From: an uncultured Solirubrobacteraceae bacterium
GTDB lineage: Bacteria > Actinomycetota > Thermoleophilia > Solirubrobacterales > Solirubrobacteraceae
NCBI GenBank assembly: GCA_964588985.1
Contig: CAZPQW010000001.1
Span: 256,001-320,000, forward strand
Reading direction: 5' to 3'
Length of the DNA stretch: 64,000 bases
Below are positions 6,101-33,814 of this stretch, piece after piece. The translations under genes were made by a program, and so were the position numbers. Position 1 is the first letter of the stretch; each line of letters opens with the position of its first letter. Below the pieces are notes generated by a model. It made no database searches and was not told the DNA's origin. It saw nothing but the letters and a program-made list of their open reading frames with translations.

Positions 6101-6174
<74 letters not shown>

Positions 6175-15449: not shown

Positions 15450-15881
15450 CTAATGGCGTGGCCGTGGCTTATTGGCAGGTGGGTTGCGGCGGAGGTCCTG
15501 CCAGAACTGGCGGGGCTTGCACGACGCGACCAGCGGCGCGCCCGCTGTGCGAATCGTTTCGGCGCCGGCGACGTACTCCATGCACGGGCTGGATTTCGAA
15601 GCTGGGCATTCCCCGCCGGGCGTCGAGGGCACATGGGGACGGACGGCGACCGCGACCGGGACGGTGCAGCCGCAGGCGCCGGTGGCGAACGAGCATTCGG
15701 GACGCGGCGTGGCCGACGGATGGGTCTTGCGTTCGATCAGCTCCAGCAGCGAGCGGGGGATGGCCGTCGCGCGAGCGTGGCCGGTCTGGGCGTGGCGGGC
15801 GGTGGCGTGCCCGCTGCTCACCGCGGCGAGCGCGCAAGCGATCGCGAAGCAACCGAGCAAGACAAGCACCATGCGCCTCAC
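15450..15881 (-). CDS. small secreted Cys-containing hypothetical protein
   Basis: TATCCT-N6-GTG start, signal peptide RRMVLVLLGCFAIACALAA, six Cys in the mature part. Confidence 0.5.
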   Translation of the reverse strand: MRRMVLVLLGCFAIACALAAVSSGHATARHAQTGHARATAIPRSLLELIERKTHPSATPRPECSFATGACGCTVPVAVAVRPHVPSTPGGECPASKSSPCMEYVAGAETIRTAGAPLVASCKPRQFWQDLRRNPPANKPRPRH

Positions 15882-15932
15882 CGGTCCAGGATAACCCGGT
15901 AGACGCGGTCGCGCACCACCTAGCATTGCCTC

Positions 15933-16949
15933 ATCTTCCGCCTCTCCGTCCTCGACCAGTCCCCGATCTCCCAGGGCTTCTCCGGCGCGCAGGCGCTGCG
16001 CAACACGCTCGAGTTGGCGCGCCTGACCGACCGCCTCGGCTACCACCGCTACTGGGTCGCCGAGCACCATGGCGGGCCGATGCTCGCGGGGCCGAGCCCG
16101 GAGGCGCTGATCGGGCCGATCGCGGCCGCGACGAAGCACATCAGGGTGGGCAGCGGGGGCGTGATGCTGCCGCACTACAGCCCGTTCAAGGTCGCCGAGA
16201 CGTTCAGCCTGCTCGCCGGTCTGTTCCCCGGGCGCATCGACCTCGGGCTGGGACGCGCCGCGGGTACCGACCCGCTGACCACGTACGCCCTGCAGCGCGA
16301 CAGGCGCCAGGCGACACCGGACGACTTTCCCCAACAGCTCGAGGAGCTGTTGGGCTATCTATATGACCGCCTCCCGAGTGACCACCCGTTCGCGCGGCTG
16401 GCGAAGATGCTCCCCGGTCTCCCGGAGCGTCCTGAGCCGTGGCTGTTGGGCTCCTCGCCGCAGAGCGCGCTGTGGGCCGCGGAGCTGGGACTGCCTTACG
16501 CGTTCGCGGACTTCATCAACCCGCGCGGAGCGGAGATCACGGCGCTCTACCGCGAGCGCTTCGCCGAACACGAACACGAGGGCCTGCACCCGCGTACGGC
16601 GGTGGCGGTGTGGACGATCTGCGCCGAGACCGACGAGGAGGCGCGGCGGCTGGCGGCGAGCGGGCGGATGACGTTCACGCTGCTGCGCCGCGGGCAGCTG
16701 ATCGCGGTGCCGCCGCCCGAGGAGGCGCTGCGGTTCCTCGAAGCCGACGACCGCTCCGCCGCGGGGCCGCGCTCGGAGCGACGCGCGGTCCTCGGTGCGC
16801 CGGCGACGGTGCGCGCGGAGCTCGAGGACGTGGTCGCCCGCTACGGCGCGGAGGAGGCGATCATCGTGTCGATCACCTACGACCACCTCGCGCGCATGCG
16901 CTCGTACGAGCTGCTCGCCGAGGCGTGCGGGTGCGAGTCGCGCCCATAG
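15933..16949 (+). CDS. luciferase-like (LLM class) flavin-dependent oxidoreductase; start codon apparently ATC
   Basis: RLSVLDQSP lies upstream of the ORF-track start; YWVAEHH, RVGSGGVML, GRIDLGLGRA. Confidence 0.88.
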   Translation: MFRLSVLDQSPISQGFSGAQALRNTLELARLTDRLGYHRYWVAEHHGGPMLAGPSPEALIGPIAAATKHIRVGSGGVMLPHYSPFKVAETFSLLAGLFPGRIDLGLGRAAGTDPLTTYALQRDRRQATPDDFPQQLEELLGYLYDRLPSDHPFARLAKMLPGLPERPEPWLLGSSPQSALWAAELGLPYAFADFINPRGAEITALYRERFAEHEHEGLHPRTAVAVWTICAETDEEARRLAASGRMTFTLLRRGQLIAVPPPEEALRFLEADDRSAAGPRSERRAVLGAPATVRAELEDVVARYGAEEAIIVSITYDHLARMRSYELLAEACGCESRP

Positions 16950-16956
16950 AGGGCTC

Positions 16957-17976
16957 ATGCACGCCGAGCGACTGACCGCGCAGATGCTCGCCGGGCCGCC
17001 GGCGAGCGACCCGGTGGAGGTGACACGCAGGCTGCTCGCGGTGCAGGGGCAGGACCCGCGTGGAGCGCGGCTCGCGATCCGCGCGCGGAGCACCGGCCTC
17101 TCAGCGGCGGACGTCGATCGCGCGCTCACGGAGGACCGCTCGCTGCTGATCACGTGGGTGAACCGCGGCACTCTGCATCTGCTCGCGAGCGAGGACTACC
17201 CGTGGCTGCACGAGCTCACCGCGCCGACGCTGTTCACCGCCGCCGCGAGGCGCCTCGCGCAGGAGGGTGTCACGCCGGACGCGGCCGATCGCGCGGTGGC
17301 GGCGGTCGAGAGCTCGCTGGCCGAGGAGGGGCCGCTGAGCAGGCTGCAGCTGCGCGAGCGGATCGACGCCGTGGGTGTGCGCACGGAGGGGCAGGCGCTG
17401 GTGCACTTGCTGCTGCTCGCGACGCTGCGCGGGCTGACGGTGCGCGGGCCGATTGTGGAGGGGCAGCACGCGTATGTGCTCGTGCGCGACTGGCTAGGGG
17501 AATCCGCGCCGGTCGATCGCGAGCGCGCACTCGCGGAGCTCGCCCGCAGGTATCTCGTGGGTCACGCGCCGGCCGACGAGCGCGACCTCGCGAAGTGGGC
17601 GGGCCTGCCACTGCGCGACGCGCGCGCAGGCCTCGCCGCGATCGCGTCGCAGCTGCATCAGCGCGAGGACGGGCTCGTCGAGCTCACGGGTAGCGGTGCG
17701 CCCGCACCGCTACCGCCACCGCGCCTGCTCGGGTCGTTCGAGCCGGTGCTGCTCGGATGGCGCTCGCGCGCGGCGTTGCTGGGCGCGCACGAGCAGCGGC
17801 TCGTCACGAACAACGGCATCTTCCGCCCGTTCGCGATGGTGAACGGGCGCGCGGTCGCCGTGTGGAAGCTGTCGGCTGGGAAGGTCACCCTCGAGCCCTT
17901 CGCGCGGATCGCGGCGAAGGACGAGGCGGCGCTGCAGGCGGACGCCGAGGATGTCGTCCGCTTCCTCTCCCGTTAG
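16957..17976 (+). CDS. AlkZ/YcaQ-family (HTH_42) DNA glycosylase-like protein
   Basis: AVQGQD (QxQ motif), WVNRGTLHL, LARRYLVGHAPA...DLAKWAGL. Confidence 0.82.
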   Translation: MHAERLTAQMLAGPPASDPVEVTRRLLAVQGQDPRGARLAIRARSTGLSAADVDRALTEDRSLLITWVNRGTLHLLASEDYPWLHELTAPTLFTAAARRLAQEGVTPDAADRAVAAVESSLAEEGPLSRLQLRERIDAVGVRTEGQALVHLLLLATLRGLTVRGPIVEGQHAYVLVRDWLGESAPVDRERALAELARRYLVGHAPADERDLAKWAGLPLRDARAGLAAIASQLHQREDGLVELTGSGAPAPLPPPRLLGSFEPVLLGWRSRAALLGAHEQRLVTNNGIFRPFAMVNGRAVAVWKLSAGKVTLEPFARIAAKDEAALQADAEDVVRFLSR

Positions 17977-18521
17977 CCGGGGATCGCCACCCTCAGGATT
18001 GGGGCGCTCGTCGGGCTCGGGCTGCCACCGAGCGGCTCGGCGGTGACGAGCACGCTGCGCACGCCGCGCAGGCTGCCGGGGATCTGCACGTCGGCGCTAC
18101 CCGCTCTCGTGACCGTGAACAGCGCGTCGGTGGGTCGTGGCGGAGCGCCCGGTCGATCGAGCCAGAGCTCGTAGACCTCGCCGAACGGCGGCTCGGACAT
18201 CCGAGATATCTCCAGCTCCGTGCTGTGTCCGACACGTCGGAGCGAAACCACGGGGGCGCTTGCGCGCGCGCCGCTGTTCGGCGTTCCGGCGGGGTTTCCG
18301 CTTCTCAACGATCCGACCAGCGCAAGTGCACCGCTGAGCGCGAGCGCCGTGCAGACGAGGCCGCCCCCGGTCTGCATCGCACGCCGTCCGCGCACCGGCT
18401 TTCCCGGATCGCCATTGCCGCCGGCCGCCGCCAGTACGCGTCGACGAAGAGAGCCTGGTGCGATCACCCGCTGCGCGGGCACCTGAGCGGTGCTGCAAGA
18501 CGATCGTGTCGAGCGAAGCAT
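17973..18521 (-). CDS. stand-alone RskA C-terminal-domain protein (no ZAS domain)
   Basis: TM segment, then GEVYELWL...TDALFTV...VLVTAEPLGGSPSPTS, closely similar to the C-terminus of 22800-23519; start position uncertain. Confidence 0.75.
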   Translation of the reverse strand: MLRSTRSSCSTAQVPAQRVIAPGSLRRRVLAAAGGNGDPGKPVRGRRAMQTGGGLVCTALALSGALALVGSLRSGNPAGTPNSGARASAPVVSLRRVGHSTELEISRMSEPPFGEVYELWLDRPGAPPRPTDALFTVTRAGSADVQIPGSLRGVRSVLVTAEPLGGSPSPTSAPILRVAIPG

Positions 18522-18530
18522 CGAGTTCCC

Positions 18531-18556
18531 TACGCACAGCGCCCCGCGGTGGATCA
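18531..18556 (-). promoter_or_regulatory. ECF (SigK-like) promoter copy 1
   Basis: Minus strand TGATCC-accgcggggcgctgtg-CGTA, 9 nt before ATG 18521. Confidence 0.8.
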
Positions 18557-18602
18557 CTCCCGCGCTCAATCGCCGGCGACGCGCGCAATTAACACTCTCG
18601 AT

Positions 18603-18628
18603 TGATCCGTATTCGCGCTGACGGCGTA
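18603..18628 (+). promoter_or_regulatory. ECF (SigK-like) promoter copy 2
   Basis: TGATCC-gtattcgcgctgacgg-CGTA upstream of the first ferritin-like gene. Confidence 0.82.
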
Positions 18629-18697
18629 GTCACACCAAGCAAGGCTGACAGGGGGAGGTTTCCTCAGCCGACCTGCCAACCCCAACATGGGAGAGTC

Positions 18698-19390
18698 ATG
18701 ACTTACACGATCAACCTGGATGAGGTCGATGTTGACGGTGCGGTACGCGAGGCGGCGGACGACGTGTCGGGTGACACGCGACTGAGCTTCCTCAAGAAGG
18801 CCGGTGTCGCGGGCGGCGCGGCGATGAGCGGCGGCGCGACTCTGTCAGTGTTCGCGCCGAGCGCGTTCGCGGCAAGTCACGGTCGCCCGCCGGCGAAATT
18901 CGGTAAAGGTGACATCGGCATACTCAACTACGCGCTCACGCTCGAGTATCTCGAGGCGGCGTTCTACAACGGCGCAACCGCGGCGAACCTGCCGCTTAGC
19001 GCCCAGGCGAGCGCGTTCCTGAAGGTGGTCACCGCCGATGAGAACGCACACGTCGCGTTCCTCAAGAAGGCGCTCGGCAAAAAAGCCGTCGCGTCGCCGA
19101 AGTTCGACTTCAAAGGCTCCAACACCAACGCCGAAACGTTCATGAAGACCGCACAGGTCTTGGAGAACACGGGCGTGCACGCCTATTCGGGGCAGGCCCT
19201 CAACATCAAGTCGGCCACGTACGTCAAGGCAGCATTGTCGATCCTTACGATCGAGGCTCGCCACGCGAGCGTGATCGGGCTGCTGAACGACCCGACGGGC
19301 AAGGAAATCGCACCCGACGGCCCGTTCGACACACCGCTCACGGCGTCGAAGGTGCTCGCCGCGGTGAAGGCCACCGGCTTCGTCGTCTGA
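18698..19390 (+). CDS. ferritin-like (Ferritin_2/desiccation-related) protein 1 with Tat-type signal
   Basis: ILNYALTLEYLE, DENAH, LENTG, IEARH di-metal ligands; signal DTRLSFLKK...AFA. Confidence 0.9.
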   Translation: MTYTINLDEVDVDGAVREAADDVSGDTRLSFLKKAGVAGGAAMSGGATLSVFAPSAFAASHGRPPAKFGKGDIGILNYALTLEYLEAAFYNGATAANLPLSAQASAFLKVVTADENAHVAFLKKALGKKAVASPKFDFKGSNTNAETFMKTAQVLENTGVHAYSGQALNIKSATYVKAALSILTIEARHASVIGLLNDPTGKEIAPDGPFDTPLTASKVLAAVKATGFVV

Positions 19391-19434
19391 GTGCACGTGC
19401 GATTCCCGACAAACACGACGTGGAGGTAGTGAAG

Positions 19435-20124
19435 ATGTCAAGTGCAACCAGTGAGGACACGGCTCCGCAGCCGGCTGGGATCGTCGAGCGACTCGTGCGC
19501 GACGATCTCGACCGAAAGCGGTTCCTGAAGGTGGTCGGAAGCGCAGGCGCGGCGAGCTTCGGCGCGTTCGTGATGGCGGCGTGCGGCAGTTCCAGCAAGA
19601 CCGCCTCGACGGCAGCGGCGCCGACGACGACGTCGACCGCCACGACCGGCGGTGGCGGTGACATCGCGATCCTCAACTACGCGCTCACGCTCGAGTACCT
19701 CGAGACCGCGTTCTACGAGAAGGTGATCGCGGCGGAACTGTTCAGCGGCAAGGTCGGAGGTCTGCTCGAGGACTTCGGCCGTCAGGAGGCATCGCACGTG
19801 GTCGCGCTGAAAGCGGCTGTCAGCAAGCTCGGAGGCACGCCGGCCACGAAGCCGAACGCGAAGTTCCCGATCACGAGCGCCACACAGGTGGCCGAGCTCG
19901 CCTACACCGTCGAGAATCTCGGCGCGTCGGCGTATCTCGGGCAGGCGGCGAACATCCAGAGTCCCGAGGTCCTGGCCTCGGCGCTCGCGATCCACTCCGT
20001 CGAGGCGCGCCACGCGGCGACCCTCGGCACGCTGGTCAAGAAGTCGGTCTCTCCGGACGGGGCGTTCGCCAAGCCGGCTGACATGTCAACTGTGCTGGCG
20101 GCCGTCAAGCCGTTCCTGGCCTGA
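19435..20124 (+). CDS. ferritin-like protein 2, Tat-type lipoprotein
   Basis: DRKRFLK, lipobox MAAC, Ser/Thr linker; LEYLE, QEASH, VENLG, VEARH. Confidence 0.9.
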   Translation: MSSATSEDTAPQPAGIVERLVRDDLDRKRFLKVVGSAGAASFGAFVMAACGSSSKTASTAAAPTTTSTATTGGGGDIAILNYALTLEYLETAFYEKVIAAELFSGKVGGLLEDFGRQEASHVVALKAAVSKLGGTPATKPNAKFPITSATQVAELAYTVENLGASAYLGQAANIQSPEVLASALAIHSVEARHAATLGTLVKKSVSPDGAFAKPADMSTVLAAVKPFLA

Positions 20125-20152
20125 TCGCTGCTGGAAAAGGAGCACGAAAACG

Positions 20153-20809
20153 ATGTCCGACAAACAACTCACACATTCGAGCCGCGCTGCGCTCGCCAAT
20201 CCCGAGCTGGCCTCGCTGGAGGTGCACGGCATGACGCGCGGGAGCTTCATCCTGCGTGGCGCGCTCGCAGCGGGAGCGTTCTACGGAACCACGGCGGTGA
20301 CGCCGTTCGTCTCACAGGCGCTCGCCGAAACCGGTGGGGGTGACGTTGACATCCTCAACTTCGCGCTCACCCTCGAGTACCTCGAGGCCGACTTCTACAC
20401 GGTCAAGGGGAGGTCGCTGAAACTCAGCGGGCAGGCGAAGGCCTACGCGCAGCAGTTCGGCGAAGAGGAGGCAGAGCACGTCACGGCGCTGATCGCCGCG
20501 ATCAAACAGCTGGGCGGCACTGCGGTGAAGAAACCGCAGTTCGTGTTTCCGGCGAGCAGCGAGAGCTCGTTTCTGGCGCTCGCCTCGGTGCTGGAGAACA
20601 CCGGAGTGGGCGCCTACAACGGCGCTGCTCCCTCGCTTCAGAGCAAGCAGGTGCTTGCGGCTGCCGGCGGGATCGTGCAGATCGAGGCTCGTCACGCGGC
20701 GGCGATCGACCTGCTGATCGGCAAGAGCCCGACGCCGACCGAAGGGTTCGACACGCCGCTCACCAAGGCGCAGGTGCTCGCCAAGGCGGGGCCGCTGATC
20801 AAGGCCTAG
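20153..20809 (+). CDS. ferritin-like protein 3 with Tat-type signal
   Basis: MTRGSFILR...SQALA; LEYLE, EEAEH, LENTG, IEARH; AAGGAG RBS. Confidence 0.9.
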   Translation: MSDKQLTHSSRAALANPELASLEVHGMTRGSFILRGALAAGAFYGTTAVTPFVSQALAETGGGDVDILNFALTLEYLEADFYTVKGRSLKLSGQAKAYAQQFGEEEAEHVTALIAAIKQLGGTAVKKPQFVFPASSESSFLALASVLENTGVGAYNGAAPSLQSKQVLAAAGGIVQIEARHAAAIDLLIGKSPTPTEGFDTPLTKAQVLAKAGPLIKA

Positions 20810-20836
20810 CAAGTGAAGCAGTGGAGGGGTCGCGGG

Positions 20837-20862
20837 TGATCCGCCGGCGGCCCCTCCGCGTA
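20837..20862 (+). promoter_or_regulatory. ECF (SigK-like) promoter copy 3
   Basis: TGATCC-gccggcggcccctccg-CGTA upstream of tatA. Confidence 0.82.
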
Positions 20863-20900
20863 ATACCAACCAGAGTCAATCTCAGGAGGCAACACCAATC

Positions 20901-21119
20901 ATGGGTCTCGACAATCCAATCCACATCGCATTTCTGCTGATCCTGCTGCTGCTCGTGTTCGGCGCCAAGCGCCTGCCGGAGATGGGCAAATCGCTCGGCA
21001 CCGGAATGCGCGGCTTCAAGGACGCGCTCAGCGGTGAGAGCGAGCCGGCGCCGCAGATCGCACACGAGCCGCAGGCAGTCGCTGTGGCTCCTGTTCCCGC
21101 CGAGAAGATCGCCGCCTGA
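20901..21119 (+). CDS. tatA: twin-arginine translocase TatA
   Basis: Short TM, FG hinge, AKRLPEMGKSLGTGMRGFK amphipathic helix; AGGAGG RBS. Confidence 0.95.
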   Translation: MGLDNPIHIAFLLILLLLVFGAKRLPEMGKSLGTGMRGFKDALSGESEPAPQIAHEPQAVAVAPVPAEKIAA

Positions 21120-21121
21120 TC

Positions 21122-22093
21122 ATGGCGGTTGCCGTCGGCAGGATCGGGCACGAAGATCGGGTCAGCCTGGTCGACCATCTGCAGGAGCTGCGCGGCCGTC
21201 TGATCATCTCGCTGGTCGCGGTAGCGGTGACGTTCGCGCTGTGCATGTGGCAGAACCACGCGCTGTTGAACATCATCAACGAGCCGCTCTCGCACGAGAC
21301 GCAAAAGCAGGTGAAGGCGGGCAACGGGCCGCTCGGCGCGACGTACACCGTCCAACAGAACGCGCGTGCGCTCGCCACCGAGCTGCAGGTGGTGGTGGGC
21401 GTGCTGGGGCGGCCCGGCAGCGGCGCCTCGCCCGCGGCCCGCGCAGCACTGGCGCCGGTCGCACCGCAGCTGCAGCGCCAGATCGCGAGTCTCTCGGCTC
21501 CGCCGCAGGGCAACAAGCCGGTGACGCTCGGGATCGGCGAGCCGTTCACCACGACGATCGGCATCGCGCTGATCTTCGCGTTGATCCTCGCGCTCCCCGT
21601 GATCCTGTACGAGCTGTACGGATTCCTGCTGCCGGCTTTCAGTCCCGAGCAGCGCAGCGTGACGACGCCCCTGATGCTGGCGATCCCGTTCCTGTTCGTG
21701 GCGGGTGTGCTGTTCGGGTACTTCGTGGTGCTCCCGGCGGCGGTGCGCTTCTTTCAGAACTTCAACAGCGGCCAGTTCAACGTGCTGGTGCAGGCCAACC
21801 AGTACTACCACTTCGCCGCGGTGACACTGCTGGCGATGGGACTCGTCTTCCAGGTTCCCGTCGGCATTCTCGCGGCCACTCGCGCGGGAGTCGTGACGAC
21901 GCGCCAGCTGCGCCACAACCGCCGCTATGCGATCCTCGCGTGCGGCGCGGTGGCGGCGTTCCTCCCCGGCGATGCGGTCACACTCGTCCTCGAGACGGTT
22001 CCGCTGTACCTGCTGTTCGAGCTGAGCGTTCTGATCGCCAGGTTCATCGAGCACCGCGAAGCCCGCCGGACGGCCGCAGATGCACTCCGATGA
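21122..22093 (+). CDS. tatC: twin-arginine translocase TatC
   Basis: SLVDHLQELRGRL, LPVILYELYGFLLPA, FGYFVVLPAA, GLVFQVP, PLYLLFELS. Confidence 0.95.
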   Translation: MAVAVGRIGHEDRVSLVDHLQELRGRLIISLVAVAVTFALCMWQNHALLNIINEPLSHETQKQVKAGNGPLGATYTVQQNARALATELQVVVGVLGRPGSGASPAARAALAPVAPQLQRQIASLSAPPQGNKPVTLGIGEPFTTTIGIALIFALILALPVILYELYGFLLPAFSPEQRSVTTPLMLAIPFLFVAGVLFGYFVVLPAAVRFFQNFNSGQFNVLVQANQYYHFAAVTLLAMGLVFQVPVGILAATRAGVVTTRQLRHNRRYAILACGAVAAFLPGDAVTLVLETVPLYLLFELSVLIARFIEHREARRTAADALR

Positions 22094-22147
22094 CCGCGAC
22101 CGCCGGCTCCGCTGGCATCGGTGGGAGGATCCTCGCGCGTGGATGAG

Positions 22148-22173
22148 TGATCCAAACGCGGGTATCTGCCGTA
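22148..22173 (+). promoter_or_regulatory. ECF (SigK-like) promoter copy 4 (autoregulatory)
   Basis: TGATCC-aaacgcgggtatctgc-CGTA just before the sigma gene ATG. Confidence 0.85.
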
Positions 22174-22176
22174 ACC

Positions 22177-22803
22177 ATGACGAGCATGTTCAATCCCTTG
22201 CGTCCAGCTGCTGGTGGAGGAGATTCGGTGGAGCGGCTGCGCGTGCTCGCGGACGAGGAGCTCATGCAGCTCGTTTACAGGAGCCGAGCGGACGCGTTCG
22301 AGGTCATCTATGACCGTCATGCCGACGCCGCCTTCTCGCTCGCCCTGCGCATCTGCGGCCAGCGTGCGCTTGCCGAGGATGTCGTGCAGGAGGCGTTCCT
22401 GTCGTTGTGGCGCAGCCAGGCGCACTACGACCGCGGCCGCGGGAGCGTGCGCACCTGGCTGCTCGGCATCGTGCACAACCGCGCGATCGACGCGTTGCGC
22501 AGACGCGCAGTGCGCGAGCGCGGGATCGTCGACGAAGAGGGACTTGAGGAGCGAGTCGCCTCGCCCGAGCGCACAGACCTGGAGTTCGCGCGCCGCGAGG
22601 AGGCGCGCCAGGTCCGCGACGCGCTCGAGCAACTGCCCGGGGAGCAGAGCCGGGTGATCGAGCTCGCTTACTTCGGCGGTCTCACACACGTCCAGATCGC
22701 GTCGATGCTCGACACGCCGGTGGGAACGATCAAGGGCCGCATGCGTCTCGGTCTTTCGAAGATGCGCATCACGCTCGGCGACCCGGCGGAGGCGGCGCGA
22801 TGA
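22177..22803 (+). CDS. SigK-like ECF sigma factor
   Basis: AEDVVQEAFLSLWR...YDRGRGSVRTWLLGIVHNRAID; IELAYFGGLTHVQIA...PVGTIKGRMRLGL. Start may be 22177 or 22186. Confidence 0.92.
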   Translation: MTSMFNPLRPAAGGGDSVERLRVLADEELMQLVYRSRADAFEVIYDRHADAAFSLALRICGQRALAEDVVQEAFLSLWRSQAHYDRGRGSVRTWLLGIVHNRAIDALRRRAVRERGIVDEEGLEERVASPERTDLEFARREEARQVRDALEQLPGEQSRVIELAYFGGLTHVQIASMLDTPVGTIKGRMRLGLSKMRITLGDPAEAAR

Positions 22804-23519
22804 GCCCCGACGAGATCGACATCCACATGGACGGCTGCGGCGTGGACGCCGCGCCATACGTGCTCGGATCGCTCACCGACCAGGAGGTCGAGACGTTCAA
22901 GGCCCACCTCGCGACGTGCGCGGTCTGCCGCGAGGAAGTGGCCGCGCTGCAGACGATCGTGTCGACGCTGCCCGCCGCAGCCCCCCAGGTGCAGGCGCCC
23001 ACGGAGCTCAAGCAGAGGGTGCTCGCCACCGTGCGACAGGAGGTCAGCCTGCACGGGGGCCCGGCCACATCAGGCGGAGCAAGGACCGGACGCAAGCCGT
23101 CACGGTCGTGGCTCGGATGGCGCCCGGCGCTCGCCGGTGTCGGCGTGGCGGCGGTCGTCGCGGTGGTTCTCGCGATTGCGCTTGCTCCGGGAGGAGGCGG
23201 CGGCGCTACGCGCACGATTCAGGCCGAAGTGCTCGCCCCGCGCGCGAGCGCGACGTTGCGGGTGAGCGACGGTCACGCCGAACTGAACATCGCCCGCATG
23301 CCGCAGACGACGCCCGGCCGCGTGTATGAGGTGTGGATTCAGCGCAGCGGACCGCCGCAGCCCACGAACGCGCTGTTCACCGTCAGCCGCGCAGGCGACG
23401 CCACCGTCGGCGTGCCCGGAGCGATCGCCGGCGTGAAGGTGGTCATGGTCACCTCCGAGCCGCGAGGCGGCAGCGCCGTCCCTACGCGCTCGCCTGTGAT
23501 CGTCGCGCACGTCAGCTGA
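22800..23519 (+). CDS. RskA-like anti-sigma factor (ZAS, TM, extracytoplasmic RskA_C)
   Basis: APYVLGSL...HLATCAVC, one TM, VYEVW and VTSEPRGGS motifs; ATGA overlap with the sigma gene. Confidence 0.9.
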   Translation: MSPDEIDIHMDGCGVDAAPYVLGSLTDQEVETFKAHLATCAVCREEVAALQTIVSTLPAAAPQVQAPTELKQRVLATVRQEVSLHGGPATSGGARTGRKPSRSWLGWRPALAGVGVAAVVAVVLAIALAPGGGGGATRTIQAEVLAPRASATLRVSDGHAELNIARMPQTTPGRVYEVWIQRSGPPQPTNALFTVSRAGDATVGVPGAIAGVKVVMVTSEPRGGSAVPTRSPVIVAHVS

Positions 23520-23730
23520 CAGCGGTCACGAGCAGCTCCTCATCGCCCACGCGCACCGTGTCGCCGCGAGCGAGCTGGCGCCCGCGTCTGTCCTCGCGCT
23601 CGCCGTTGACCCACACGGGCTCGGTCGCGAGCAGCGCCTTGGCCTCGCTGCCGCTGTCGATCAGTCCGGCGAGCTTGAGCAGCTGACCGAGCCGGATCTT
23701 CTCCTCCCTGATCGGGATCTCGCGAGCCAT
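23512..23730 (-). CDS. S4-domain RNA-binding protein (YbcJ/YaaA-like)
   Basis: IRLGQLLKLAGLIDSGSEAK...VWVNGEREDRRGRQL. Confidence 0.9.
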   Translation of the reverse strand: MAREIPIREEKIRLGQLLKLAGLIDSGSEAKALLATEPVWVNGEREDRRGRQLARGDTVRVGDEELLVTAVS

Positions 23731-23792
23731 CCGAGGAATCTAGCGCCCGGAAGAAGACGGCCGCTCGGAATGCGCTACTGTCGCGCTCAGCG

Positions 23793-24566
23793 ATGGGCGA
23801 GCGAAGCGAGTACACACCGGGAACGTTCTGCTGGACCGACCTGAGCGCCCCCGACCAGGCCGCCGCGAAGGCGTTCTACACCGCGCTGTTTGGCTGGAGC
23901 GCGGTCGACATGCCGGTCGGCGAGTCGGTCTACTCGATGATGCAGGTAGACGGCAAGACGGTCGCCGCGATCTCCCCGCAACCCCAGCAGCAGCGCGACG
24001 CGGGTATGCCCGCGATCTGGAACTCCTACATCTCGGTCGGTAGCGCCGACGCGGTCCTCGAGCGCGCGAAAGAGCTCGGCGGCTCGGCGCACACCCCCGC
24101 CTTCGACGTGTTGGACGCCGGTCGCATGGCGGTCATCCAGGACCCGCAGGGGGCGTACTTCCTGGTGTGGGAGCCGCGCGCGCGACCCGGCGCCGCGCTC
24201 GTGAACGCCCCCGGCGCGCTCGTGTGGAACGAGCTGCAGTCCCCCGACCTCGACGCCTCCGCGTCCTTCTACGGCGACCTCTTCGGCTGGGACGTCGCCC
24301 CGTTCGAAGGCATGGCGGATCGCTACCTGTCGATCAAAAACGCGAGTGCGAACAACGGCGGCATGCGCGAGCTCGCGCCCGGCACTCCGCCCAGCTGGCT
24401 CGTTTACTTCGGCGCCGAGGACATCGACGCGGCGCTCGCCAAGGTGCAGGAGCTCGGCGGCTCCAAGTTGGCCGGCCCGATCGACATCCAGATCGCGAAG
24501 ATCGCGGTCGTGCAGGATCCGCAGGGCGGCGTGTTCGCGCTCTACGCGGGCGCGCTCGAGCCCTAG
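23793..24566 (+). CDS. two-domain VOC/glyoxalase family protein (CFP32-like)
   Basis: PGTFCWTDL...FYTALFGW and PGALVWNEL...FYGDLFGW; DPQG twice. Confidence 0.9.
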   Translation: MGERSEYTPGTFCWTDLSAPDQAAAKAFYTALFGWSAVDMPVGESVYSMMQVDGKTVAAISPQPQQQRDAGMPAIWNSYISVGSADAVLERAKELGGSAHTPAFDVLDAGRMAVIQDPQGAYFLVWEPRARPGAALVNAPGALVWNELQSPDLDASASFYGDLFGWDVAPFEGMADRYLSIKNASANNGGMRELAPGTPPSWLVYFGAEDIDAALAKVQELGGSKLAGPIDIQIAKIAVVQDPQGGVFALYAGALEP

Positions 24567-25930
24567 CTCCGAGCGCTCGGCCGCATCGCGCCGGCCGCCG
24601 GGTCGACGATCGGCGCGGGATAGTCGCGCGGAGAGCAGCGACGAGGCAGCAGCCACGGCTCGTGGACAGCGGCGCCCGCGATCGCCTCCAGCTCCGGCAC
24701 GTAGCGGCGCACGTAGTCGCCGCGAGGATCGAAGCGCTTGGCCTGGCGCAACGGGTTGAGCACGCGGTTGGGGCGCGTGTCGTTGCCAGTGCCCGCGACC
24801 CACTGCCAATTTCCGACGTTGTTCGCCACGTCGGCGTCCACGAGCAGCCGCGCGAAGTGCGCGGCGCCGATACGCCAGTCGAGGTAGAGGGTCTTCGTGA
24901 GGAATGACGCGACGATCATGCGCGCACGGTTGTGCATGAACCCCTCGCGCGCGAGCTGGCGCATGCCCGCGTCCACGATCGGATAGCCCGTAAGCCCGGC
25001 GCGCCATGCTTCGCTCGCGTGCGCGTCGATCCGCCATCGGTCTCCGCGCGGTCGGTAGTCGGCATGTGTCATGTCCGGACGGGCGGCGAGCACCTGGTGG
25101 TGGAAGTCGCGCCAGCAAAGCTGGCGGGCGAAGCCCTCCGTGGATGGCGCGTGCGCGTGAGCGCAGGACGACGCACGCTCGAGCACGGTGCGCGCCGACA
25201 GGCAGCCGAAGTGCAGGTACGTGCTCAGACGCGACGTGCTCGCGCCCGCGAGGTCGTCGTGGCCCTGCTCGTAGCCGGACAGCCCACCGCGCAGCCAGCT
25301 CGTGAGCTGCTTGCGCCCGGCGCTCTCGCCGCCCTTTGCCAGCACCGGAGAGGGCGGCTCGCGTGTCAGGTTCTCGAGTGCAGGAGGAGGCGGCGCATCC
25401 TGCAGGCTGTGCGGGACTGGGATGCGGTGCGGCGTGGACGCTTTCGGACGAAGCTGTGCTTCGCTCCACACGCGCCAGTACGGGGTAAAGACGCGATAGT
25501 GATCGCCGCCGCTCGGCACGAGCTCGCCCGCCGGCACGACCGTCACGCCAGGAAACGTGCGCAGCGCGACGCGTGCGTGCTCGCAGCCAGCCGCGAGGCG
25601 GGCATGCCTTCGTCGTGCGTACGGAGTGACGTCCTCGCTCACGCAGATCGCCGACAGGTCGAGCTCGCGCACGAGACGCAGGGCCTGCTCGACGACATCG
25701 CCGCGGCGCACGAGCAGACGCGCGCCGCGCACGGCCAGCGAGTCGTCCAGATCGCCCAGGCAGTCGAGCAGGAACGCGAGCCGGTTGGGCGAGCCGCACG
25801 GCCCGCGCAGCAGCTCGCGGTCGAGCACGAACGCGGGCACCACCACGTCGTACTCGCGCACCGCGGTCGCCAGCGCCGGCTGGTCGCGCACGCGCAGGTC
25901 GCGCGTGAACAGCACCAGGGCGCCGCTCAC
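24563..25930 (-). CDS. phr: DNA photolyase (class I/III CPD type)
   Basis: LFTRDLRVRDQPAL, YRVFTPY, TSRLSTYLHFG, TGYPIVDAGMRQL, MHNRARM, NVGNWQW. Confidence 0.93.
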   Translation of the reverse strand: MSGALVLFTRDLRVRDQPALATAVREYDVVVPAFVLDRELLRGPCGSPNRLAFLLDCLGDLDDSLAVRGARLLVRRGDVVEQALRLVRELDLSAICVSEDVTPYARRRHARLAAGCEHARVALRTFPGVTVVPAGELVPSGGDHYRVFTPYWRVWSEAQLRPKASTPHRIPVPHSLQDAPPPPALENLTREPPSPVLAKGGESAGRKQLTSWLRGGLSGYEQGHDDLAGASTSRLSTYLHFGCLSARTVLERASSCAHAHAPSTEGFARQLCWRDFHHQVLAARPDMTHADYRPRGDRWRIDAHASEAWRAGLTGYPIVDAGMRQLAREGFMHNRARMIVASFLTKTLYLDWRIGAAHFARLLVDADVANNVGNWQWVAGTGNDTRPNRVLNPLRQAKRFDPRGDYVRRYVPELEAIAGAAVHEPWLLPRRCSPRDYPAPIVDPAAGAMRPSARS

Positions 25931-26817
25931 TCGGCGAGGGCTCTCCGGAGAGCCTCGTCGAAGGACATCGGCACGATCCCGAACGGCGCCGCGCCCGAGG
26001 GGTCGGTGACGATCGTCTCGGTGGTGAGGCCCTCGACGAGCGGGCGTGCGACGTTCACGTCCACAGGCGTGACCAGGCCGAGCCACAGCGCCGAGAGCCA
26101 AGGGGTGATGAACGGGACGGGCAGCTTGGGGCGCACGCGCACGCCCATCGCGATGGCCATCCGGTCGAGCATCTCGCCGTAGCCGAGCACGTCCGGGCCG
26201 CCGATCTGGACCTCGCGCCCGAGCGACTGCGGCACGTCCGGAGCGAGGCGGAGATACTCGATCACGTCGTCGATCGCGATCGGCTGGGTGGAGATCTTCA
26301 GCCAGCTGGGGGCGATCATCACGGGCAGCCGTTTCACGAGGTAGCGCAGCGTGCGGTAGGACTCGCTGCGCGCGCCGACGACCATCGCGGCCCTGAAATA
26401 GGTGAGCGGCGGTCCGTCGGCGGCGAGCGCGAGCGCGGTCCGGTGGCGGCTCTGCAGGTGCTTGGAGACGCTCTCGTCGCCGAGGCCGCCGAGGTAGACG
26501 ATCTGCTTCACGCCGTCGCGCTTCATCGCGCGCGCGAAGTTCGTCGCTCCCTTGAGCTCGCGCTCCTCGAAGCCCGCGCCGCCGGCCATCGCGTGCACGA
26601 GGAAGTACGCCACGTCGATCCCCTCGCCAAGGCCCTCCAGGCTCGCGGCGTCCATCACGTCGCCCCGGCGGATCTCGCAGCGCTCGTGTTCGAGACCGCG
26701 TGCGCGGTCCGGGTTGCGCACTAGACAGCGCACGTCCTTCCCCGCGTCGAGCAGCGCCTCGGTGAGGCGAGTGCCGATGAACCCCGTTGCTCCTGTGACG
26801 AGCGCCTTCTGAGCGAT
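25927..26817 (-). CDS. NAD(P)H-binding atypical SDR (YbjT-like); start codon apparently ATC
   Basis: Rossmann motif KALVTGATGFIG lies upstream of the ORF-track start; AYFLVHAM, IVYLGGLG, SKHLQSR. Confidence 0.85.
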   Translation of the reverse strand: MAQKALVTGATGFIGTRLTEALLDAGKDVRCLVRNPDRARGLEHERCEIRRGDVMDAASLEGLGEGIDVAYFLVHAMAGGAGFEERELKGATNFARAMKRDGVKQIVYLGGLGDESVSKHLQSRHRTALALAADGPPLTYFRAAMVVGARSESYRTLRYLVKRLPVMIAPSWLKISTQPIAIDDVIEYLRLAPDVPQSLGREVQIGGPDVLGYGEMLDRMAIAMGVRVRPKLPVPFITPWLSALWLGLVTPVDVNVARPLVEGLTTETIVTDPSGAAPFGIVPMSFDEALRRALAE

Positions 26818-26826
26818 ACGAGGAGC

Positions 26827-27660
26827 TTAGACCCGCGGGACGCTGCCGGTGCCGTTGCGCCGGTCGGCCATGTCGGGGCCGGTGGTGGTCGTCATCGCCT
26901 TCGCCGCGCCGCCGCCCATCACACGGCGCACCAGCCCGGGCGCGAGCACGCGCAGCGCGGCCGCGAGCTCGTACGCGCGCGGCACGTAGCGCTCGGCCTT
27001 GCGCCCGATGCCCGCCTCGTAGATCGCCTCGGCGCCCTTCTCGGGCGTGGACACGGCCCAGCGTGTCCACGGCTTGGACGTGAGCTCCGACTGCGGGAAG
27101 CCCTCCGTGGAGATGAAGCCCGGCAGCACCAGGCCGACGTGCACACCGTTGGGGCGCTCCTCGGCCCACAGCGCGTCCGACCAGCCCGCGAGCGCGAACT
27201 TCGACGCGCTGTACGCGCCGGAGCCCGCCCGCGAGACGCGCCCGGCGGTGGAGGAAACGTTCACGATCGCGCTCGGCGCGCTCGAGCGCAGCAGCGGCAG
27301 GAGCGCCTCGGTGAGGCGTATCTGCGCGTCGAAGTTGATCGCCATCGTGCGTCGCACGTTCTCGTAGCCGCCGTCGGCGAACGTCGCGCGCCACGCCGCG
27401 CCGGCGTTGTTGACGAGCAGGTCGAGGCGCCCGTGGCGCTCCTGTACGTGCTCGCGGATGCGCTCGGGGGCGTCCTCGTCGAGCAGGTCCACCGCGACGA
27501 AGCTCACGCGCTCCTCGCCGAGCGACGCCGCCAGCGCGCGCAGGCGCTCCTCGCGGCGGGCGACCAGCACGAGCGCAGCGCCGGGCTCGCGTGCGAGCCG
27601 CTTCGCCGTGGCTTCGCCGATCCCGCTGGACGCGCCGGTGATGAGCATCACTGTTGGCAT
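26827..27660 (-). CDS. short-chain dehydrogenase/reductase
   Basis: ITGASSGIG, NNAG, YSASK. Confidence 0.92.
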   Translation of the reverse strand: MPTVMLITGASSGIGEATAKRLAREPGAALVLVARREERLRALAASLGEERVSFVAVDLLDEDAPERIREHVQERHGRLDLLVNNAGAAWRATFADGGYENVRRTMAINFDAQIRLTEALLPLLRSSAPSAIVNVSSTAGRVSRAGSGAYSASKFALAGWSDALWAEERPNGVHVGLVLPGFISTEGFPQSELTSKPWTRWAVSTPEKGAEAIYEAGIGRKAERYVPRAYELAAALRVLAPGLVRRVMGGGAAKAMTTTTGPDMADRRNGTGSVPRV

Positions 27661-32680: not shown

Positions 32681-33814
32681 ATGGCCAGCGTGGCAGAGGA
32701 CCCGGCTGCTCCCTCCCCGCCCTCGGGCGGGGCAGGGAAGGCAGTCGCGGGGCCCCACACGGCATCGCCCGGGAAGCGGGTGCTTGAGCGTCTGCTCTCG
32801 CTGCGCGAGGGCAGCATCATCGTCGTCACGATCGTCGTCGCGGTCTACTTCTCGATCAACACGAGCACCTTCCTGACGGGTGCGAACTTCAAGACGGTGC
32901 TGCCGTACTTTGCGCCGTTCGCGATCCTCGCCGCGGGCGAGGTGTTCGTGATGATTCTCGGGGAGATCGACCTGTCGATCGGGGCGATGTACATGTTCGC
33001 CCCGATCGTCTTCTACAAGCTGGACACCGCCGGCCTGGGTCTGGCGCCGTCGGTGATCCTGGCGCTGTTGGTGTGCATGGTGGTCGGATTGGCCAACGGT
33101 GCGTTCGTCTCGATCGTCGGAGTGAGCTCGTTCGTGACCACGCTGGGGATGCTGTTCACCTTCGAGGGGCTCAGCCTGATCATCTCGCACGGGCAACCCC
33201 AGTCGACGCCTGGGGCGCAGATCCATCAGACGACCGTGCAGGTTCACCACGTGGTCAATGGCCATAGCATTGTGCTGCCCGAAACGGTCAACCACATCAG
33301 CACGTTCGCGAAAATCTTCGGCGGCGGGGTCTACTCTGAGCTGATCTGGGCGGTTGCGATAGTGATCGTGCTGCAGGTCGCGCTGACCTTCAGTCGCTGG
33401 GGCCTGTACACGGTGGCGATCGGATCGAACAAGCTCGGCGCCGCTGAGGCGGGGGTCAAGGTCAAGCTGGTGACGATCCGCAACTTCGTGCTCTGTTCGC
33501 TGACCGCGGGTCTCGTCGGGATCTTCGAGGCGGTCCGCTCGCAGACGATCCAGCCGGACCCCTCGGGCCCCAACAAGATCCTCCTGCTCGCGATCGCCGC
33601 GGCGGTGATCGGTGGCACGTTGCTGGCGGGAGGCTCGGGTACTGTCGTCGGCGCCCTCATCGGCGCGCTGTTCCTGGGGGTCCTCGAAGACGGCTTGATC
33701 CTGCAAGGAGTCAATGCGAACTATCTGCTGTTCTACATCGGCCTGGCGATCGTTGCGGCGATGACAGCGAACGTGTACGTCGGTCGAGTGCGCAGGGGGC
33801 ACGGGAGTGGCTGA
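32681..33814 (+). CDS. monosaccharide ABC transporter permease
   Basis: GEIDLSIG, SFVTTLGM, AIGSN...AAEAGV, IAAAVIGGTLLAGG. Confidence 0.93.
   Translation: MASVAEDPAAPSPPSGGAGKAVAGPHTASPGKRVLERLLSLREGSIIVVTIVVAVYFSINTSTFLTGANFKTVLPYFAPFAILAAGEVFVMILGEIDLSIGAMYMFAPIVFYKLDTAGLGLAPSVILALLVCMVVGLANGAFVSIVGVSSFVTTLGMLFTFEGLSLIISHGQPQSTPGAQIHQTTVQVHHVVNGHSIVLPETVNHISTFAKIFGGGVYSELIWAVAIVIVLQVALTFSRWGLYTVAIGSNKLGAAEAGVKVKLVTIRNFVLCSLTAGLVGIFEAVRSQTIQPDPSGPNKILLLAIAAAVIGGTLLAGGSGTVVGALIGALFLGVLEDGLILQGVNANYLLFYIGLAIVAAMTANVYVGRVRRGHGSG

Follow-up and report, generated by a model that had tools for sequence, protein, structure and literature searches.

The stretch of DNA analysed here, called the window below, covers 64,000 nucleotides (G000:C1:256001-320000) of the draft genome of an uncultured Solirubrobacteraceae bacterium. 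This genome, G000, amounts to 3.41 Mb in 48 contigs, is 95.9% complete and has a G+C content of 68.3%. Two genes of the window, one for a luciferase-like monooxygenase (LLM) and one for an NAD(P)H-binding protein (NAD for short), lack a canonical start codon (ATG, GTG or TTG) ahead of their essential N-terminal motifs. Each carries an ATC six bases behind a -10-like hexamer of the TANNNT type, the position that the first codon of a leaderless messenger would occupy (N6 stands below for a six-base spacer). The features concerned are the following, in window positions and with the two neighbouring genes last.

15921..15926, plus strand: -10-like hexamer TAGCAT of the LLM gene; its TAG (15921-15923) is in frame with the gene
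15933..15935, plus strand: ATC, proposed 5'-terminal start codon of the LLM gene, six bases after TAGCAT and three codons before the LSVLDQ strand
15933..16949, plus strand: MsnO8-family LLM gene (TIGR03558, Bac_luciferase), 338 codons plus stop, intact
26824..26829, minus strand: -10-like hexamer TAAGCT of the NAD gene; its TAA doubles as the stop of the upstream short-chain dehydrogenase (SDR) gene
26815..26817, minus strand: ATC, proposed 5'-terminal start codon of the NAD gene, six bases after TAAGCT
25927..26817, minus strand: NAD gene (atypical SDR / NmrA-like, 'YbjT'-type; PF13460), 296 codons plus stop, intact
15879..15893, minus strand: start of the divergent neighbour of the LLM gene, encoding a small signal-peptide-like protein; TATCCT (15893-15888), N6 and GTG (15881-15879), a canonical leaderless start
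26827..27660, minus strand: upstream classical SDR gene, 277 aa, ATG start, ending in the TAA of the TAAGCT hexamer

A sequence-only reading of the window had proposed initiation at these two ATC codons, and the anatomy that it described could be reproduced: hexamers, spacers and ATC triplets (15933-15935 and 26817-26815) stand where it had placed them, and a stop lies in frame inside each hexamer (TAG 15921-15923 and TAA 26829-26827). This stop follows from the geometry alone, since hexamer and spacer add up to 12 bases (6 + 6) and a hexamer starting with TAA or TAG thus falls in frame. Behind the LLM ATC, whose C is position 15935, the frame continues TTC CGC CTC TCC GTC CTC GAC (FRLSVLDQSP...), and from TAG 15921 no ATG, GTG or TTG occurs in frame until TTG 16014. 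Behind the NAD ATC the minus strand reads AQKALVTGATGFIG, that is GCT CAG AAG GCG CTC GTC ACA GGA, and the first canonical codon in frame is GTG 26733, behind the GATGFIG Rossmann loop. Read by eye, with no formal scan, the 15 bases before either ATC contain no GGAGG-like (Shine-Dalgarno) run.

Both products are complete members of known families when read from ATC. The LLM protein from 15933 matches NCBIfam TIGR03558 (MsnO8-family LLM oxidoreductase) with 381.3 bits (cut-off 166.95) over profile positions 1-325 of 325, and Pfam Bac_luciferase with E 2.8e-41; position 1 of TIGR03558 aligns to residue 4, which puts the family N-terminus at the ATC of 15933. The NAD protein, which has thousands of full-length relatives in public collections, matches Pfam NAD_binding_10 (PF13460) from residue 9 with 69.3 bits (cut-off 27.2, E 5e-19), and GATGFIG, its GxxGxxG loop, occupies residues 9-15. 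The first canonical start would remove the first barrel strand of the LLM protein or the nucleotide-binding loop of the NAD protein, as the sequence-only reading had stated.

Two observations concern the surroundings of these genes. Between 15879 and 15935 the LLM gene and its neighbour form a divergent pair, GTG on the minus strand and ATC on the plus strand, each six bases behind a -10-like hexamer, with 51 bp between the start codons. At the other site, the SDR stop lies nine bases before the NAD ATC and in the same frame, and a fusion of the SDR and NAD domains, with TAA read as a residue in a 577-aa frame holding both Pfam domains, was considered; it was rejected since alignment of the two frames is not maintained in orthologs, where the upstream stop, too, usually lies elsewhere.

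The NAD gene offers the richest comparison across species. Among 24 genomes of the same genus, six species (G000, G015, G018, G001, G012 and G008; 70-84% protein identity) share the arrangement TA[AG]NCT-N6-ATC, with an in-frame stop four codons upstream of ATC and no canonical codon before the Rossmann loop; the ortholog of G006 has an upstream GTG, and those of sister families read TAGGTT-N6-ATG and similar. We then took the 80 closest orthologous loci of other species from a species-representative collection, one per species, 67-86% identical and almost all labelled uncultured Solirubrobacteraceae or Solirubrobacterales bacterium. Four codons ahead of the Rossmann motif, 64 of them have ATC, 1 has ATT, 1 has ATG (L158, TAACCT-caaccg-ATG), 1 has GTG and 12 have another codon, the motif being unrecognised in the last. 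A TANNNT hexamer precedes 60 of the 66 ATC, ATT or ATG loci, at N6 in 56, N5 in 3 and N7 in 1. Altogether 47/80 loci are clean in the sense that they combine ATC or ATT with the hexamer, an upstream in-frame stop and the lack of any canonical codon before the motif. Close orthologs, a check suggested by the sequence-only reading, thus mostly show no ATG at this position and have ATC or ATT there. Since ATG is found in only 1/79 orthologs although it is one mutation away, the comparison hints that ATC is preferred over ATG here, beyond being merely tolerated.

Behind the fixed ATC the N-terminus is otherwise free to vary at these loci. Codon 2 is GCN, in all four synonyms, whereas codon 3 takes 23 forms and codon 4 takes 18 among the 66 loci, and the ALVTGATGF stretch of the ATC-bearing species shows synonymous changes (GTC/GTA, GGA/GGG/GGC, GCA/GCC/GCG). 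Four orthologs (L163, L165, L167 and L171) are built differently: they have no hexamer and carry GGAGG five bases before ATC, followed by AAC CAG CGC GTG CTG GTA. Initiation could occur here at an ATC with a leader or at the GTG beside the motif.

These loci bear on the possibility that ATC is indeed the start codon but that the messenger has a leader, being transcribed from further upstream and translated by way of standby binding, 70S scanning or reinitiation. The SDR stop just ahead of the NAD ATC in the window would suit reinitiation, and the four GGAGG-bearing orthologs would suit a leader. Against this, TANNNT stands at exactly N6 in 56/66 NAD loci, neither ATC of the window has a Shine-Dalgarno-like run before it, and the LLM gene, whose neighbour is divergent, has no upstream gene to which its translation could be coupled. 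Nor is the hexamer kept for its value as a stop codon: an upstream co-directional gene ends in it at no more than 5/65 NAD loci, and five hexamers are TACCCT, which is not a stop. At 27/65 loci the upstream co-directional stop lies 29-77 nt before ATC, at 26/65 no such open reading frame ends nearby, and at the remaining 7/65 the stop overlaps hexamer or spacer elsewhere or falls downstream of ATC. We therefore regard a leadered messenger as unlikely.

The whole genome was scanned in two ways. The first scan took the 2100 stop-to-stop frames that reach 100 codons and show a coding-like G+C pattern, and searched them for at least 12 codons free of ATG, GTG and TTG after the upstream stop, with up to 20 of those nearest the first canonical start looking like coding sequence. 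Forty-one of the 2100 frames pass, many of them antisense frames. Among the real-looking genes there are four ATC cases, and all four sit at TANNNT-N6: the LLM and NAD genes of the window and two further genes, both full length and without frameshift.

C30:4234-3440, minus strand: rhomboid-type protease gene, ATC at TANNNT-N6
C4:76225-77160: aldo-keto reductase gene, ATC at TANNNT-N6

The second scan applied a start-like filter to 3721 TANNNT-N6/7 sites, each followed by an open frame no shorter than 100 codons; the filter was passed by 60/301 sites with ATG, 40/209 with GTG, 0/24 with TTG, 4/63 with ATC and 27/3124 with all other triplets. ATC is thus the commonest non-canonical triplet at the leaderless position, in agreement with the genome-wide excess that the sequence-only reading had set as a check. 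The binomial P of the ATC excess is 0.003 for four sites and 0.023 for three; the latter value is given too because one site, on contig C29, was rejected as a Pro/Ser/Thr-rich low-complexity frame. Another ATC, at window position 33344, was discarded as lying inside a permease gene, and the aldo-keto reductase gene escaped the filter because its upstream stop is far away. Canonical leaderless sites with ATG or GTG number at least 172 in the genome and have hexamers of the same kind as the ATC genes, TAGCAT being among the commonest (8/172). Within the window, the sequence-only reading had counted 14 ATG/GTG leaderless genes; the geometry does recur there, at 10 sites and not 14, when TANNNT-N6/7 is required before an open frame that has 100 codons or more and a G+C fraction at third codon positions (GC3) of at least 0.78.

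Both additional genes have orthologs in which ATC and canonical codons replace one another. For the rhomboid, 11 genus orthologs retain the N-terminal motif: four (G000, G001, G012 and G005) read TA[AG]NCT-N6-ATC-TTC-CCG, five have the same type of hexamer 33-40 nt upstream together with ATG, and two have ATG or GTG without a hexamer, while orthologs of other families place TTG, GTG or ATG at the same residue. Two architectures thus occur within one genus (L066, L067, L073, L074 and L085 versus L065, L068, L069 and L072), namely hexamer-N6-ATC, or hexamer plus a leader of 33-40 nt without obvious Shine-Dalgarno sequence and then ATG. For the aldo-keto reductase, hexamer-N6/7-ATC is found in 7/8 orthologs, and the pair TAACCT-gagcgc-ATG (G018) and TAACCT-gagcgc-ATC (G015) is identical in hexamer and spacer. 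The 15 bases before the ATC of these two genes are likewise devoid of a GGAGG-like run, by eye and with no formal scan. Synonymous and non-synonymous differences behind ATC stand at 126:125 (NAD), 205:114 (aldo-keto reductase) and 343:398 (rhomboid), counts too crude to serve as a dN/dS test; the argument from conservation draws on the conserved motif alone.

It could also be that some other near-cognate codon close by initiates, for example ACG or ATA at NAD codon 3, and that ATC is kept as initially transcribed sequence. Codon 3 is ACG in 20/66 NAD loci, and one NCBI-sourced protein record (P0007, on the contig of L125) starts at ATA two codons after ATC. However, the variety of codon 3 contrasts with an ATC that is fixed in 64/66, and canonical orthologs place their ATG, GTG or TTG exactly at the ATC position, as seen in NAD locus L158, in the aldo-keto reductase of G018 and among the rhomboid orthologs. 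We consider such a displaced start highly improbable.

The LLM gene is present in 83/201 genomes of the genus, and 37 loci were examined. In 17 of these TAG[CG]AT stands no more than 150 nt ahead of the LSVLDQ motif, and 11 of the 17 have ATC or ATT behind it, spaced by N6 or, in one, by N7; ATG or GTG is found at the same promoter distance in L004, L192, L194 and L196. Ten of the 11 ATC/ATT triplets are in frame with the motif, at eight distances (9, 30 twice, 57, 60, 63, 66 twice, 69 and 84 nt), whereas in the one that is out of frame (L208, 56 nt) the protein match begins only at residue 17. Compared with the one-third expected by chance, this frame keeping has a binomial p = 1.3e-4, or p = 1e-3 (8/9) when each length is counted once. 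Five of the ten in-frame loci (L003, L007, which has ATT, L203, L204 and L210) have no canonical codon at all between stop and motif.

The same picture would arise in a single genome assembled from a metagenome if there were errors of base calling or assembly, or if genes had just lost their start on the way to becoming pseudogenes. The draft state of the assembly leaves room for such errors, and at the LLM locus the nearest relative, 86% identical, reads TAGCAT-N7-ATG, the ATC three codons before the motif being confined to this genome among the loci seen. In contrast, the same ATC recurs in independently assembled genomes of many species and in all four families, the four genes are full length without frameshifts, and the protein stretch behind ATC is conserved. 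For the phenomenon as a whole we give this explanation very little weight. The sequence-only reading had named base-call errors, recent start loss and, for the LLM gene, a 1-nt indel after TTG 15926 as alternatives; conservation of ATC across species excludes these for three of the four families, while the uniqueness of the exact LLM arrangement means that a base-call error at 15935 could still account for the LLM gene of this genome, and for that gene only. Judged by these alignments, the ATC starts are neither base-call errors nor recent start losses outside that one gene.

The remaining alternative is that translation begins at the next canonical codon (TTG 16014, GTG 26733) and gives N-terminally truncated proteins. 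Public NAD relatives that measure 264-275 aa and start only after the Rossmann loop (P0001, P0002 and P0093) would fit, as would a GTG at NAD codon 29 in 5/6 genus orthologs. Yet such proteins would have lost their first barrel strand or their GxxGxxG loop, and the skipped NAD stretch is conserved as protein, with the synonymous changes in ALVTGATGF described above. The frame between ATC or ATT and the LLM motif is kept in 10/11 loci over eight lengths, and the next canonical codon wanders from +10 to +68 among rhomboid and aldo-keto reductase orthologs. Truncation is therefore very unlikely in our judgement. The short public records, which include P0001, P0002, P0029, P0093 and others and measure 264-290 aa, seem to be cut short because gene callers apparently do not allow ATC. 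Other NAD records start at a TTG in the promoter spacer (P0036 and P0061), and some begin with M followed by the residue of codon 2.

Taken together, the comparisons make it likely that an uncultured Solirubrobacterales genus practises true initiation at a 5'-terminal AUC on leaderless mRNAs. Under this reading, the constancy of ATC would reflect its role as start codon and that of the hexamer at N6 its role as promoter, and the frame behind ATC or ATT would be preserved because it is translated; ATG, GTG or TTG alternate with ATC at the same position in NAD locus L158, the aldo-keto reductase of G018, several LLM loci and the rhomboid orthologs. That this lineage initiates at 5' AUC, as the sequence-only reading had suggested, is well supported by the comparative evidence, with ATC or ATT at the same promoter-proximal position in many species and four gene families. 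The leaderless status of the ATC genes is deduced from promoter geometry. As far as searched, the phenomenon appears confined to one large uncultured genus, with more than 200 species-level genomes, and to few genes per genome.

We propose that a small set of genes would be transcribed from ordinary TANNNT promoters into messengers that begin at the A of ATC, rarely ATT. A 70S ribosome would bind the 5' end as on other leaderless mRNAs and begin translation at the 5'-terminal AUC, with the normal initiator tRNA (CAU) pairing with A and U and tolerating a C:C mismatch at the third position, so that the protein would begin with (f)Met. The first codon would need a purine since it is also the transcription start, and ATC would be the favoured near-cognate at 68% G+C; purine requirement at +1 and G+C bias together could explain why leaderless near-cognates are ATC and leadered near-cognates in the genus are CTG. 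A purine is favoured at +1 of transcription starts in mycobacteria too, according to the portion of the work drawn on here (PMC4633059). We infer the 5' end of the transcript, the tRNA used, the amino acid inserted and the level of expression, and the yield is likely to lie below that of AUG.

The initiation machinery of the genome looks ordinary. Its 48 tRNA genes include one standard initiator (window 6101-6174) with anticodon CAU and three G-C pairs in the anticodon stem, one elongator tRNA-Met, a third CAU tRNA and one tRNA-Ile(GAU), and none of the 48 is an initiator-like tRNA with anticodon GAU. A special AUC initiator tRNA was accordingly rejected, the single initiator being ordinary and none being suited to AUC. 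In infC no AUU start was seen, its frame opening with GTG three codons after the stop.

Several known systems resemble this one in part. The common view of leaderless translation makes it dependent on nothing but codon-anticodon pairing, and near-cognate starts known in bacteria give low expression. The leaderless mRNAs of Actinobacteria and Deinococcus share with the ATC genes the order of TANNNT, six or seven bases and first codon, without Shine-Dalgarno sequence; theirs begin with AUG or GUG, whereas the present genes begin with AUC or AUU and so lie outside a class defined by AUG/GUG. Animal mitochondria, which use a modified tRNA-Met, read a 5'-terminal AUH codon (AUA, AUU or AUC) as start on leaderless mRNAs, as is predicted here from promoter geometry, but they are organelles with their own code and factors, unlike the present bacterium, which is free-living and whose initiator and elongator tRNAs look standard, and the resemblance would be one of function that does not imply common descent. 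The leaderless mRNAs of mouse mitochondria start with GUG, AUC, AUU or AUA more often, taken together, than with AUG, according to the part of PMC8459731 consulted. Shine-Dalgarno-led near-cognates, such as the AUU of infC and the ATT, ATC and CTG of NCBI table 11, present the same third-position mismatch with the initiator anticodon; they need a leader with a ribosome-binding site, whereas here the codon lies at the presumed 5' end without such a site. What would be new is that leaderless mRNAs and near-cognate start codons, each known already, occur in combination. A full-text literature search that left subscription journals outside its scope found no description of leaderless AUC/ATC starts in bacteria, and in the part of the S. 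lividans reannotation (PMC8079986) that was covered ATC, ATT and CTG do not occur as whole words.

A number of points weigh against initiation at a 5'-terminal AUC. Only three to four genes per genome are affected, and their enrichment relies on small numbers (P 0.003 to 0.023). The counts of loci overstate the number of events, as related species are not independent, and the constancy of the third base of ATC weighs little because ATC is by far the commonest Ile codon at high G+C. The other five of the ten in-frame LLM loci with ATC or ATT hold an in-frame canonical codon that could serve, and an upstream in-frame canonical codon is also present in 4/7 aldo-keto reductase orthologs with ATC. 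A scan for consensus promoters and terminators returned nothing at either window site, which says little here since the scanner requires a -35 box. Experience in other bacteria points the same way, as reported in the portions of the four papers used here. In M. smegmatis ATC served as a negative control and only ATG and GTG work at the 5' end (PMC4633059); in Caulobacter, reporters drop drastically when a leaderless AUG is changed to AUC, AUU, AUA, CUG, UUG or GUG (PMC8459731); in D. deserti ATG and GTG are the only start codons of the 916 leaderless genes whose 5'-UTR measures 0 nt, the single ATC-start gene, for which an N-terminal peptide was detected, being leadered (PMC4007540); and Ribo-RET of M. 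tuberculosis gave no ATC enrichment (PMC9094748).

The first scan brought to light other genes of the genome without a canonical start in the expected place. Real-looking genes with CTG behind a purine-rich run are pth, maf (contig C43), bioA (C19) and nadD (C17), and the same list holds thiD (C6), an ECF sigma factor gene (C14) and comA (C25). In all six genes from maf to comA the conserved N-terminal motif precedes the first canonical start; in most of them a CTG is plausibly placed, and comA has ATA. The pth gene (peptidyl-tRNA hydrolase), which lies outside the window at G000:C1:245346-245960 (L213:146-760), has no ATG, GTG or TTG before its GLGNPG motif. Its CTG behind GAGGAG, overlapping the stop of the upstream gene, is conserved in about 20 genus genomes, and the start region of sister families shows ATG (L234, L236 and L237) or TTG (L242 and L245). 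On this comparison, pth has a conserved Shine-Dalgarno-led CTG start.

Three further observations concern the genome at large. On the minus strand at G000:C27:31243-31339, ARAGORN calls a tRNA of 97 nt whose anticodon, 'ggag', is odd in having four bases; together with a long extra arm it contains a TCA in a loop-like setting, and it may be a mis-parsed tRNA-Sec. On contig C2 a plus-strand frame from 76004 comprises 156 codons with only the C-terminal part of an enzyme, presumably an FMN-dependent alpha-hydroxy-acid dehydrogenase-like protein, and may represent a frameshift or a gene fragment. No match to the WhiB Pfam family, an actinobacterial marker, was obtained in this 95.9%-complete genome.

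That a species-rich uncultured Solirubrobacteraceae lineage uses 5'-terminal AUC, sometimes AUU, as a selectively kept leaderless start is a claim towards which the alignments incline us, with less assurance than we attach to 5'-terminal AUC initiation as such. It runs counter to the rule that bacterial leaderless translation needs AUG or GUG. If true, 70S leaderless initiation would not follow one start-codon rule in all bacteria, and natural, conserved 5'-AUC genes would reveal a rule that varies from lineage to lineage. The machinery of the lineage would then tolerate a mismatch in the third position of a 5'-terminal codon, or else exploit it to hold certain enzymes low or conditional; a low or tuned expression of the 5'-AUC genes, which the sequence-only reading had suggested, is a conjecture. 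Gene callers limited to ATG, GTG and TTG would truncate such proteins, and the annotations of an abundant soil group would be systematically wrong for these genes.

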